A DNA stretch of 21,250 bases from the NCBI GenBank assembly GCA_022710205.1, contig JAKLHJ010000004.1, positions 1 through 21,250 on the forward strand. The letters are read 5' to 3'. Of the stretch, positions 18,971 to 21,250 are shown piece by piece. A program made the position numbers and the translations under genes. The notes under the pieces are model-generated. The model did not search any database. It saw only the letters and a list, made by a program, of their open reading frames with translations, and had not been told where the DNA came from. Each line of letters opens with the position of its first letter. The stretch's first letter is position 1. The DNA is from Patescibacteria group bacterium. GTDB taxonomy: Bacteria > Patescibacteriota > Minisyncoccia > Phycocordibacterales > UBA12445.

Positions 18971-19054
18971 TGTCATCTCGAGCTTGTCGAGAGATCTCTT
19001 CATTTCTGAATTATAAGCGATTCCTCGACAAGCTCGGAATGACACTGGTTTTTT
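18971..19054 (+). other. Long imperfect hairpin followed by a plus-strand T-run in the grpE-dnaK spacer. This is a terminator-like structure antisense to the chaperone operon.
   Basis: The 26-nt arms are tgtcatctcgagcttgtcgagagatc 18971-18996 and gattcctcgacaagctcggaatgaca 19019-19044, with 3 mismatches and a 22-nt loop containing TATAAT. A plus-strand ctggTTTTTT follows at 19045-19054. On the minus (operon) strand no U-run follows. Confidence 0.5.
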
Positions 19055-19666: not shown

Positions 19667-19731
19667 GAAATATAACTCTTAATTAAAGAACACCGCTTTC
19701 GATTGAGCGATGATTTCTTCTTGTTAGCTGT

Positions 19732-19760
19732 ATTTTACTTATGGAGACTACGCATGTCAA
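19732..19760 (-). promoter_or_regulatory. Consensus sigma70-type promoter reading toward grpE: TTGACA, a 17-nt spacer, then TAAAAT.
   Basis: On the minus strand: ggacgTTGACAtgcgtagtctccataagTAAAATacagc. On the plus strand the -35 is tgtcaa 19755-19760 and the -10 is atttta 19732-19737. This predicts a ~58-nt leader to the grpE ATG at 19666. It is immediately preceded on the minus strand by the G-tract GGGGAGGGTGAGGGAGG (19764-19780). Confidence 0.5.
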
Positions 19761-19806
19761 CGTCCTCCCTCACCCTCCCCGATAGCGAAATTGCAAATTA
19801 AATCGC

Positions 19807-19830
19807 ACAAGCGGACCTTAGTCCGCTTGT
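19807..19830. other. Perfect 10-bp hairpin acaagcggac-ctta-gtccgcttgt.
   Basis: Seen directly. On the minus strand it is followed by a T-rich stretch (gcgatttaatttgcaatttc). It is a possible terminator for the murF transcript, upstream of the grpE promoter. Confidence 0.4.
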
Positions 19831-19870
19831 TCCTTATTCGTCCTTACCACCAAAATAGCGATAATTTCAA

Positions 19871-20005
19871 GAAGAGAAAATAAATATTTAGAGACTTCGC
19901 AGGCCGAATTAGCATGGCTCGAGCGGAGCGAGATAATGAGGCCGAGACTGAATGCCGGCCCTCGCAGGGGGCCGGACATGTACTCTAAATATTTATTTTC
20001 TCTTC
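19871..20005. repeat. 135-bp element: 23-bp perfect terminal inverted repeats (gaagagaaaataaatatttagag / ctctaaatatttattttctcttc) enclosing an 89-nt GC-rich core. The right arm encodes the last codons and the stop of murF.
   Basis: The arms are 19871-19893 and 19983-20005 and are exact reverse complements. The core is GC-rich with internal sub-hairpins (ccggccc-tcgca-gggccgg) and a direct repeat tcgcagg. The murF stop codon (19993-19995) lies inside the right arm. No target-site duplication is evident. Confidence 0.6.
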
Positions 20006-21135
20006 CACTCTCTATCCTGTCTTACAAGATGCGATGTATCATTCTTTTCTTTTGAAATTATCGCTTCCACCACCTTCTCCATTCTTGTCCCCTGCGATCC
20101 CTTAACCAATATTGAATCACCTTCTTTCATATATTCAGCCACAAAGTCGGCGGCAGACACCGAATCTTTAAATTCGTGTATATTGAGAGCGCTCATTCCC
20201 GCAGACTGCGCTCCGTCGGCAAAAAATTTACCTTTGCCGCCCACAGTGACGAGCTCATCACATATCTCAGGAATAATTTTACCAATATTTATGTGCGCCC
20301 CCTCTGTATGAGAGCCCAGCTCTAGCATATCACCCAAGACGGCGATCTTTCTTCCCTTGCTCTTTATCTCCTTAAACGACTGAAGCGCCATCTCAAGAGC
20401 CACCGGAGAGGAATTGTATGTGTCATCTATAACTAGCGTGTTTTTGTTGCCGTGAAGCGGCTTAAATCTTCCCGGAGGACCGCTGTGGTCCCGGAGCACG
20501 TCTATCATTTTTACAAAATTCAAACCTTGCGACACCCCGACAGAAAAAGCGGCGAGCGCTGTGTAAACATTTTGTTTGCCGAATATTCCGTTCAACCTTA
20601 CGGGAAAATTACCGCCATCATAATCTACCTTGAATGCGATACCTCTTGGCATTATCTCGTCCCCTCCCTCCTCATATACAATGTGATAATTAGAAGCTAA
20701 AAGATCGGAGCCTTTTCCAAAACCGAAAGTTATTTTTCGGTTATCAGTCTTCTCCCTTAATTTCATTATCGAAGGGTCGTCATTGTTCAAAACCAATATT
20801 CCGCCGTCTTTCAATGTTCTTATAAGATGAGATTTCTCTTTCACGACCTCTTTCTGATTCTGAAACTGCTCTATATGTACCGGTATCTCGGCAATCCTTG
20901 TCATAACAACAACGTCGCTCTTTAGCCACTTGGATACGCTCAAAATATCTCCCGGCTTATCGGCGCCGACTTCAAGCACGAGCCACGCCGGATATTTGTG
21001 AGGAAAAATTATGAGCGACGCGCCCTTTATGATATTCACTAACCAAGCAAGCGGATCTGTCCATGCATTTTTTAATCCGAGAATAGTAAGAGGGAGACCT
21101 ATCTCACTGTTAAAACTTTTCTCGCTCTTCCCCAA
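19993..21135 (-). CDS. murF: Mur ligase, MurF-like (UDP-MurNAc-tripeptide-D-Ala-D-Ala ligase): central and C-terminal domains only. The N-terminal domain and canonical P-loop appear to be missing.
   Basis: 380 aa. 'NSEIGLPLTILGL', 'IDDTYNSSPVALEMAL' and 'LVKGSQGTRME' match MurF central/C-terminal motifs. The track's start codon is TTG, and all three minus-strand frames contain stops between 21200 and 21250. The aligned position of the GxxGKT P-loop reads 'HIPFLGKS'. Confidence 0.6.
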   Translation of the reverse strand: MGKSEKSFNSEIGLPLTILGLKNAWTDPLAWLVNIIKGASLIIFPHKYPAWLVLEVGADKPGDILSVSKWLKSDVVVMTRIAEIPVHIEQFQNQKEVVKEKSHLIRTLKDGGILVLNNDDPSIMKLREKTDNRKITFGFGKGSDLLASNYHIVYEEGGDEIMPRGIAFKVDYDGGNFPVRLNGIFGKQNVYTALAAFSVGVSQGLNFVKMIDVLRDHSGPPGRFKPLHGNKNTLVIDDTYNSSPVALEMALQSFKEIKSKGRKIAVLGDMLELGSHTEGAHINIGKIIPEICDELVTVGGKGKFFADGAQSAGMSALNIHEFKDSVSAADFVAEYMKEGDSILVKGSQGTRMEKVVEAIISKEKNDTSHLVRQDREWKRK

Positions 21136-21144
21136 AAATGGGAT

Positions 21145-21250
21145 ATGAAAATTCTGGTCGTTGATGGTAATTCTCCTGATGGTACAGGAAAAGTTGTCAC
21201 TGACAAATCAAAAAAATGGAAAAATACTTTTCTTTACACTGAAACTAGCA
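21145..21250 (+). CDS. Partial ORF, possibly a glycosyltransferase family-2 (Dpm1-like) fragment. It is divergent from and abuts the murF start.
   Basis: ATG at 21145, open to the window end: 'MKILVVDGNSPDGTGKVVTDKSKKWKNTFLYTETS'. 'VVD(D/G)xSxDGT' is the GT2 DxD-region signature. The expected upstream 'PTYNE' region is absent in this frame. Confidence 0.3.
   Translation, partial: MKILVVDGNSPDGTGKVVTDKSKKWKNTFLYTETS

Follow-up and report, generated by a model that had tools for sequence, protein, structure and literature searches.

A duplex of about 23-40 bp in a transcript is a classical RNase III substrate, and the sib/int system of lambda is an RNase III-dependent 3' retroregulator. Integron attC sites lie at or over stop codons, conserve structure rather than sequence and may end in a branched part that varies. 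For E. coli, RNase III sites have been found to concentrate in non-coding RNAs and in the parts of transcripts that separate genes (PMC6212723), and the enzyme is able to mature small RNAs from stem-loop precursors (PMC8687705). Correia elements are described as ~100-155 bp long, with ~25-bp terminal inverted repeats, and as co-transcribed with neighbouring genes; RNase III binds and cuts the hairpin in their RNA, or protects it, and the mRNA level of the neighbours changes (PMC2649163). Here we describe an element that shares features with several of these systems. It lies in a complete contig of 21,250 nt (JAKLHJ010000004.1, positions 1 to 21,250; hereafter the window) from a Paceibacteria/Parcubacteria metagenome-assembled genome, a member of the Candidate Phyla Radiation (CPR). 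The element contains a perfect 23-nt inverted repeat over the stop codon of murF. In the reading that we favour, at about even odds, the murF mRNA has as its 3' untranslated end a conserved structured element confined to this one locus, and the repeat forms the stem, P1, that closes it.

The arms, GAAGAGAAAATAAATATTTAGAG (19871-19893) and CTCTAAATATTTATTTTCTCTTC (19983-20005), each 23 nt long, match perfectly in reverse complement and enclose an 89-nt spacer, just as the original prediction had described them. With up to three mismatches allowed, the arm sequence occurs at only these two sites in the window, and 100 shuffles gave no match. The core was also rightly called GC-rich (61.8%, compared with 21.7% for the arms and 43.3% for the window). 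Whichever strand is read, the 5' arm is A-rich and the 3' arm is U-rich. The 156-nt region folds with z = -8.9 on the plus strand and z = -6.1 on the minus strand, relative to shuffled sequence. Two smaller features of the core that had been pointed out are both there: a sub-hairpin CCGGCCC/GGGCCGG (19955-19961 and 19969-19975) and a 7-nt direct repeat TCGCAGG (at 19897 and 19962), but the latter is probably incidental, since it is not retained in the related loci L086 and L126. The inverted repeat is longer than first noted, as 19857-19870 perfectly complements 20052-20065 within murF. This third complementary segment, here called P0, had been overlooked, as had a true MITE-like palindrome (MITE, miniature inverted-repeat transposable element) some 900 nt away, described below.

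The element is found in four related lineages of these ultra-small bacteria: the window (with two further assemblies of the same species, L001 and L002, that are 100% identical over the region), L085, L086 (with L087) and L126. In all four, the consensus architecture is a long stem, P1, that closes a three-way junction with two hairpins, P2 and P3. In the window the parts of the murF-sense RNA are, from 5' to 3':

20052-20065, minus strand: 5' strand of P0, murF codons (E)AIISK, sense RNA AGCGAUAAUUUCAA, pairing with 19857-19870
20006-20051, minus strand: 46-nt 5' bulge between P0 and P1, the murF codons just before the last three, with a small local hairpin in minimum-free-energy folds
19983-20005, minus strand: 5' arm of P1 (the right arm of the original prediction), with codons K-R-K and the stop TAA (19993-19995)
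19952-19979, minus strand: P2 hairpin, sense AUG-U-CCGGCCC, loop CCUGCGA, GGGCCGG-C-AU
19944-19951, minus strand: junction J2/3, sense UCAGUCUC, inside the 27-nt block CGAGGGCCGGCAUUCAGUCUCGGCCUCA
19902-19943, minus strand: P3, in which GGCC (19940-19943) pairs with GGCC (19902-19905) and encloses a variable inner hairpin
19936-19938 with 19913-19915, and 19929-19932 with 19918-19921, minus strand: P3 inner hairpin, pairing CAU/AUG and CUCG/CGAG
19894-19901, minus strand: junction J3/1, sense UGCGAA, and two pairs AC/GU capping P1
19871-19893, minus strand: 3' arm of P1 (formerly the left arm), U-rich, complement of 19983-20005
19857-19870, minus strand: 3' strand of P0, sense UUGAAAUUAUCGCU, running on directly from the 3' arm of P1

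Over the lineages P1 is AU-rich and 23-26 bp long, and the core measures 89-123 nt. The nucleotide identity of the hairpin in the window with that in L085/L086 is 87%, a higher value than for dnaK (82%) or for murF and grpE (70-74%). The unpaired blocks of the core are under purifying selection. The 27-nt block CGAGGGCCGGCAUUCAGUCUCGGCCUCA is invariant across the window, L085 and L086, and L126 retains its UCUC. The P2 tip, CCCC(U/A)GC(G)AGGG, is kept in all lineages, as is the CGAA of J3/1 (4/4), and the blocks UCUCGGCCUC(A/G)CUCU and CGUGCCCG(U/C)UCGGCCU(G/C)CGAA are conserved with L126 included. The P3 tip is more variable; L086 carries an extra, perfect 7-bp hairpin inserted there and L126 has a different tip, UUUUGC-UAAA-GCAAAA.

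The helices have changed in a compensatory manner. Two positions of P1 differ between the window and L085/L086 by a double change from A-U to G-C, and the inner P3 stem by one from U-A to C-G. In the four-sequence alignment 97.1% of the cells pair and 26 of the 43 pairs have changed on both sides. When the partners are slid by 1-3 columns as a control, 43-53% of the cells pair and just 5-7 pairs are changed on both sides, and none of 500 shuffles matched the observed pairing and covariation values. Every helix contributes. In P1 (helix 1), 18 of the 26 pairs have changed on both sides, with 96.2% of the cells paired. In P2 (helix 2) the figures are 7 of 10 pairs, in L126, and 97.5%, and in P3 (helices 3 and 4) pair 85:107 is U-A or C-G and pair 84:108 is A-U or G.U.

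L126 is the most divergent of the four. Its P1 (GUUUAAUAUUAUUGUUUAAAAAGGC / GCCUUUUUAAACAACAAUAUUAAAC) and P2 stem (GACUCCC/GGGAGUC) bear no resemblance to the other type, type A. P1, P2 and the P3 tip are fully rewritten with the pairing kept, and L126 folds into the same shape on its own. A covariance model built from type A alone detects L126 end to end, with 54.7 bits. By its neighbouring sequence, L126 is closer to L085 than L086 is (downstream open reading frame, 80% versus 52% amino acid identity), and in the 200 nt past the hairpin L126 and L085 are 96.5% identical, whereas their hairpin arms and cores are only 48-61% identical. Either the L126 hairpin is a cassette swapped in from an unsampled relative or paralogue, or it has evolved extremely fast under a pairing constraint. 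The near-identical tract (L085 5441-5640, L126 402-600) runs for ~200 nt from the hairpin to an unannotated 206-208-aa open reading frame, and comprises the tail, a promoter TTTACA-16-TAGTAT and a 5' untranslated region (UTR) with two hairpins. The murF 3' end is 78% identical between the two and the open reading frame 80% (amino acids). The tract points to either a strongly constrained leader or recent recombination.

The structure continues into the coding region. P0 is a perfect complement of 14 nt in the window and 14-17 bp over the lineages, with its murF side ~55 nt before the stop. The 3' strands of P1 and P0 form 37 nt of continuous complement, while the 5' strand is interrupted by the 46-nt bulge of murF codons. 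In the partition function P0 pairs with probability 1.00 in the window, L085 and L086, and of 1000 shuffled tails only 2, 0 and 3, respectively, paired as strongly. Two A-U pairs of P0 have become G-C in L085/L086, where murF reads ..UUUCGGAGG and the tail CCUCCGAAA. The murF codons UCA-AAA of the window are UCG-GAG in L085 and L086 as the tail changes from UUGA to CCUCCGA. P1 thus provides 23-26 bp of uninterrupted duplex in the transcript and P0 a further 14-17 bp on the same 3' strand; an RNase III-type stem has at least ~20 bp.

The position of the element is fixed. The murF reading frame (minus strand, 19993..21135) ends in R-E-W-K-R-K-TAA, with K-R-K and the stop inside the right-hand arm. 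On the minus strand the order is murF, element, grpE, dnaK, dnaJ, and in relatives murF is the last gene of the dcw cell-wall operon, mraZ-rsmH-ftsL-pbp-murF. There is one copy per locus in all four lineages, starting at or within ~17 nt of the murF stop, in relatives with MurF identities to the window of 77% (L085) and 74% (L086/L087). The element is not present at murF in L083, L084, L121, L122, L123, L125 and L088. A tree of MurF, GrpE and DnaK, ((window,(L083,L084)),(L085,L086)) with L088 as outgroup, together with these presences and absences, requires one gain and one loss only, a pattern that fits vertical inheritance of the element.

Three further features follow P0 in the window:

19829-19856, minus strand: conserved purine-rich tail, GGUGG..AAGGA..AAUAAGGAAC
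19807-19830, minus strand: canonical-looking hairpin after the tail, 10 bp with a 4-nt loop, in the window lineage only
19732-19760, minus strand: grpE promoter, TTGACA-17-TAAAAT, 11 of 12 consensus matches, downstream of the whole element

Because the grpE promoter lies downstream, the element is not a grpE leader but the 3' end of the murF transcription unit. The tail sequence AAUAAGGAAC is invariant in all four lineages. The hairpin at 19807-19830 is a probable terminator of the murF transcript in the window lineage, although its own tail, GCGAUUUAAUUU, narrowly fails the T-run rule of the terminator scan.

Which strand carries the functional RNA? Transcription of P1 in the murF sense is unavoidable, since the stop codon is inside or just before P1 and there is no earlier terminator. 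The sense strand is also favoured because the murF mRNA enters P1, P0 uses murF codons and there is no conserved antisense promoter; on the plus strand the sole promoter-like match lies inside the core and is not conserved. From this context the sense transcript is treated as the probable functional form. The element probably serves the murF (dcw) transcript as a module for processing, stability or termination, and is possibly an RNase III substrate. It is more than a terminator, as the ordinary terminators of this genome have stems of only 10-13 bp and loops of 3-4 nt. The original prediction had made the same point about stem length, and the alternative that it offered to a mobile element, an elaborate RNA 3'-end structure, is supported in substance.

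Several observations weigh against this interpretation. The structural evidence is good for so small a set, but the set comprises only four lineages, L126 supplies most of the double changes, and the alignment on which they are counted had been fitted to the model. Pairing in P1 is nearly all Watson-Crick, and a DNA-level correction of palindromes could yield the same pattern. The plus strand folds better by ~10 kcal/mol (-69.1 versus -59.5 in the window and -73.2 versus -63.2 in L126). The count of wobble against A.C cells is three for sense and two for antisense, which does not discriminate between the strands. In L126 a synonymous UCU leaves a U.C mismatch in P0, and with 76 of 1000 shuffles as strong its P0 is not significant. 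Finally, the element has been lost without obvious replacement in L083, L084, L121 and L125, and is therefore dispensable.

If the element is indeed a structured 3' end, it would act in cis on the 3' end of the transcript. About 37 bp of stacked duplex may block 3' exonucleases and read-through into the downstream unit. In addition, or instead, the duplex may be cut by RNase III in P1/P0, which would free the three-way-junction RNA from the mRNA, much as happens with rRNA processing stalks and with small RNAs that RNase III matures. The conserved junction sequences would imply a sequence-specific partner, either protein or RNA. We further speculate that ribosomes finishing murF would open P0 and the foot of P1, and full duplex formation would then depend on translation.

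In the CPR (Patescibacteria) genomes are tiny, spare DNA is scarce and hardly any regulatory RNAs are known. A non-coding structure that is kept better than its neighbouring chaperone and cell-wall genes, with a helix, unusual in itself, that reaches into a coding region, suggests post-transcriptional control where the dcw operon meets the next transcription unit. A bolder version of the proposal, which we consider possible but rather unlikely, is that the three-way-junction core belongs to a new functional RNA class (a small RNA that binds protein or RNA, or a domain that is catalytic or binds a ligand) carried on a ~25-bp stalk and released by RNase III from the 3' end of the cell-wall operon mRNA. 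At least two deeply diverged allelic types would be swapped as whole-hairpin cassettes at one locus, and P0 would couple formation of the structure to translation of the last murF codons. Should the core prove to be a released RNA, it would represent an RNA class not described before. With four lineages the family is narrow, and its general importance is limited unless relatives turn up in wider searches; a covariance model of the element is now at hand for further searching.

Among the alternatives, the one that survives best is that the palindrome is maintained at the level of DNA, as the relic of an insertion or inverted duplication whose arms are kept alike by template switching (quasi-palindrome correction) or gene conversion. 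The RNA would then have no function, or the palindrome would be a protein-bound DNA site. The arms are perfectly Watson-Crick paired with hardly any G.U pairs, and the 3' arm and tail look like an inverted copy of the murF segment AGCGATAATTTC.... Furthermore, the unit in which L085 and L126 differ coincides with the hairpin; it stops sharply on the right, where the flank downstream is 96.5% identical. The element has also been lost in sister lineages. On the other hand, it is the unpaired junctions that are best conserved, with 27 nt invariant even though MurF is only ~75% identical. The short helices P2 and the P3 tip also show compensatory change, the extra hairpin of L086 is inserted precisely in a loop and the region is necessarily transcribed. 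Efficient gene conversion needs repeats longer than 14-17 bp, so the P0 repeats are too short for it. We regard a DNA-level origin as unlikely, with a real share of the probability kept alive by the oddity of the L126 hairpin and the near-absence of wobble pairs in P1.

A plain bidirectional intrinsic terminator of the dcw operon, made of A-tract, hairpin and U-tract with an overgrown loop, is a doubtful explanation. Its A-rich 5' arm and U-rich 3' arm are as expected on either strand, and this genome does have extended, A/U-flanked terminators, for example at 3217-3261. The top of the L126 structure, AAAAAGGC...GGCCUCCGAAAGGCCUUUUU, includes a terminator-like GGCCU-CCGAA-AGGCC hairpin followed by UUUUU, and L085 and L126 have no other strong hairpin ahead of the next promoter. 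Yet terminator loops have 3-8 unconserved nucleotides, whereas here the 'loop' is an 89-123-nt core with the best-conserved bases of the whole element. The U-run of type A does not directly follow the GC stem and the consensus terminator scan does not flag the element. In addition, the window has the separate canonical hairpin 40 nt further on (19807-19830), and P0 extends into the coding region.

An independent antisense small RNA, encoded on the plus strand opposite the 3' end of murF, is quite improbable. The greater stability of that strand holds in both types, and several sense mismatches become G.U pairs on it (in the P3 inner stem of L085/L086, the A.C of P1 in L126 and the closing pair of the P2 tip). 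Against this, no conserved sigma-70-type promoter is found upstream on the plus strand, the wobble pairs 30:163 and 84:108 favour the sense strand, and forming P0 would take at least 75 nt of read-through into murF antisense.

Does the repeat mark a mobile element? The original prediction had offered, as the first of two readings, a small MITE inserted into the 3' end of murF that had replaced the native C-terminus. An active or recent MITE, or another foldback transposable element, is now very unlikely. The 23-bp perfect terminal repeats and the size are MITE-like, presence varies among relatives, the whole hairpin has been replaced in L126 and palindromes do move in these genomes (window 18971-19044, L084 5346-5418). 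However, in all the sequence covered the element is single-copy and always at the same site, with compensatory changes in relatives and a distribution that fits vertical descent. This is one of the two observations that the original prediction had named as speaking against a mobile element, and the other, the MurF C-terminus shared by orthologues without the repeat, is made as well (see below). As had been noted from the start, there is neither a transposase gene nor a target-site duplication at the locus: the flanks in the window (..GAGAGTG| and |TTGAAAT..) contain no direct repeat at the borders, and nor do those of L126 (..GGGGAAG| and |CTCCGAA..). The element-free lineages are too diverged from the carriers to display a clean empty site.

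The searches for further copies agree. Two covariance models run over ~430-450 kb of Paceibacteria loci found no copy beyond those 3' of murF. Scans of viral sequences (with a 15-mer and with a gapped 21-base pattern common to both types) gave only chance matches in GC-rich coding DNA, and a 19-mer scan of metagenomes likewise gave only chance matches, in a collection evidently without the JGI contigs that bear the element. Searching plasmids and phages with blastn found nothing relevant, and a MurF-profile scan of genome contigs returned only relatives of at most 49% identity, none with the element. Relatives sought via MurF, GrpE and the downstream open reading frame yielded one new carrier lineage, L126, and several lineages without the element.

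The C-terminus of MurF tells the same story. MurF orthologues end alike with or without the repeat, in ...LVRQDxEW-x-K/R-K/R, and because repeat-less orthologues share this motif the C-terminus is native in kind rather than acquired by insertion. It is true that the arm encodes K-R-K-stop in the window lineage, but in L085, L086 and L126 the stem starts ~9-17 nt past the stop. Between the conserved TGG codon and the AT-rich portion of the arm that the lineages share there are 12 nt in the window and 35 nt in the other three. Through this shortening by 23 nt, K-R-K-stop is now read from the purine-rich arm instead of x-K-R-stop. The arm-encoded end is, as read from the alignments, a chance mimic of the ancestral one. 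This illustrates that a perfect 23-bp inverted repeat over a stop codon need not mean a mobile element.

An invertible DNA switch, with a recombinase acting on the 23-bp repeats, is scarcely credible: perfect inverted repeats do bound a short segment, but no recombinase gene is nearby, 89 bp is very short for site-specific inversion and the orientation of the core relative to murF is the same in 7/7 contigs (at least five independent assemblies from four lineages).

A number of other candidates were considered and set aside. At the gathering threshold of Rfam 15 the window matches tRNA-Leu only, and in a permissive search the best sub-threshold hits near the element have E = 1.8-4.5 (E = 2.5-2.8 for L086); the scan with covariance models that had been proposed for the core thus returned no Rfam family for the element. 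A scan of the window for tRNA and transfer-messenger RNA found tRNA-Leu alone. Coding potential in the core can be dismissed: a 53-aa open reading frame (minus strand), two with 39 and 119 aa (plus strand) and a short one from a conserved (A/G)TG in P3 all vary in frame or length among the lineages, the small frames of the core being broken by a 1-nt indel and early stops. Hammerhead-like junctions (CUGANGA / GAAA) were inspected and the core bases misfit on both strands. For L085 and L086, folding predicts a switch between P1 and an extended helix of murF with the 3' arm; L126 cannot form this helix and the window forms it poorly, so the switch is not a conserved feature. Linkage of the element to the downstream open reading frame fails, as L084 lacks the element but has the frame, and for the window the reverse is true. 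A small-RNA target search with the junction complement GAGACTGAATG gave chance-level results, save for one wobble-compatible site. This site, window 582-592 (plus strand), GGGACTGAATG, is complementary with one G.U to the invariant junction CAUUCAGUCUC, and may be a chance match. The intergenic region around it, 410 nt long and GC-rich, matches no Rfam family and shows no significant fold (z = -1.2 and -1.7).

Some observations concern duplications around the element. The tails of L085 (5487-5499) and L126 (446-458) contain CTCGCTTCGCTCG, a 13-mer of the inner P3 hairpin of the L086 core, and the L086 tail holds GCTCCGCTCG, which matches the core of the window. This pattern looks like an internal duplication of the inner P3 hairpin within the element. 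In the window a second, partial copy of the tail (19762-19795, sense GCAAUUUCGCUAUCGGGGAGGGUGAGGGAGGACG) lies directly next to the -35 box of the grpE promoter and is closer to the L085 tail than the first copy is. The relatives have an open reading frame of 206-260 aa between the element and grpE that is missing in the window. The partial copy and the missing frame may be the scar of a deletion or duplication.

The palindrome ~900 nt from the element is a better candidate for mobility. It spans 74 nt of the window (18971-19044; ends TGTCATYYCGAGC, sequence TGTCATCTCGAGCTTGTCGAGAGATCTCTT...AAGCGATTCCTCGACAAGCTCGGAATGACA, fold z = -7.7) and stretches the spacer between grpE and dnaK to 163 nt, compared with 5-12 nt in relatives. 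The same palindrome occurs at another locus in L084, just 3' of murF (5346-5418), and in L038 similar ends lie 520 nt apart. By its sequence distribution this palindrome shows the pattern of mobility in these genomes that the murF element does not.

Other features of the window are worth recording. Between the grpE promoter and the start codon the 5' UTR has a hairpin, CATCGCTCAATCGAAAGCGGTG then TTCTTTAATT (19691-19712, minus strand), which could serve the chaperone operon as an attenuator or thermosensor; upstream of grpE no hrcA gene or CIRCE-like repeat was seen. At the other end of murF, the sequence upstream of its TTG start (21136-21250) is not murF, and ~53 N-terminal MurF codons are missing. 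A plus-strand ATG at 21145 opens MKILVVDGNSPDGTGKVV..., with a weak match to Glycos_transf_2 (E = 0.029, below the curated cut-off). All three assemblies of the window species end within 15-115 nt of this position, which points to rearranged or repeated sequence there, or to a chimeric end of the contig. Finally, 14 nt at 817-830 (plus strand), 65 nt from the tRNA-Leu gene (889-970, minus strand), perfectly repeat its T-arm/3' part (896-909) in inverted orientation, and a related 13-nt piece is at 706-718. These may be remnants of integration or rearrangement at the tRNA.

How does the murF element compare with known systems? It lies outside the MITE, terminator, attC, retron and inverton classes, because for each of them at least one defining feature fails. 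With the CREE/NEMIS elements of Neisseria, and with ERIC/IRU, RUP and BOX, it shares the size class, terminal inverted repeats around a core, and transcription. However, MITEs of the CREE type occur in tens to hundreds of copies at many loci, have TA target duplications and move between strains, while the murF element is single-copy, located after murF, without a duplication and vertically inherited, with a branched core that is conserved beyond its arms. Intrinsic bidirectional terminators have in common with it the A-rich 5' flank, the GC-rich structure, the U-rich 3' flank and the location at the end of an operon, but their stems are 5-13 bp long rather than 23-26 bp, and they lack a conserved three-way junction of 89-123 nt in place of a loop.

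Integron attC sites are similar in their position after or over a stop codon, in conserving structure above sequence and in their branched top. Nevertheless, the element has none of the RYYYAAC / GTTRRRY core sites, bulged-base pattern, integrase or cassette array of an integron, and murF is a core operon gene. Its arms, GAAGAG.../...CTCTTC and GTTTAAT.../...ATTAAAC, have the wrong order and sequence for attC, and the neighbours are dcw and chaperone genes. As for retrons, no reverse-transcriptase gene adjoins the element; downstream lies either grpE or the 206-260-aa open reading frame, in which no Pfam domain was found in any of the relatives.

The closest likeness is to RNase III retroregulators and to the stalks of rRNA and intervening sequences, which also place a long perfect duplex around a structured RNA or just past a stop codon. 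There is no sequence similarity between these and the murF element, and the context, a CPR cell-wall operon, is a different one. By this analogy the element would work most nearly in the manner of an RNase III-type 3' stem or retroregulator, or of a transcribed hairpin of the Correia type. Among structured 3'-UTR elements it is best regarded as a new variant with a narrow distribution.

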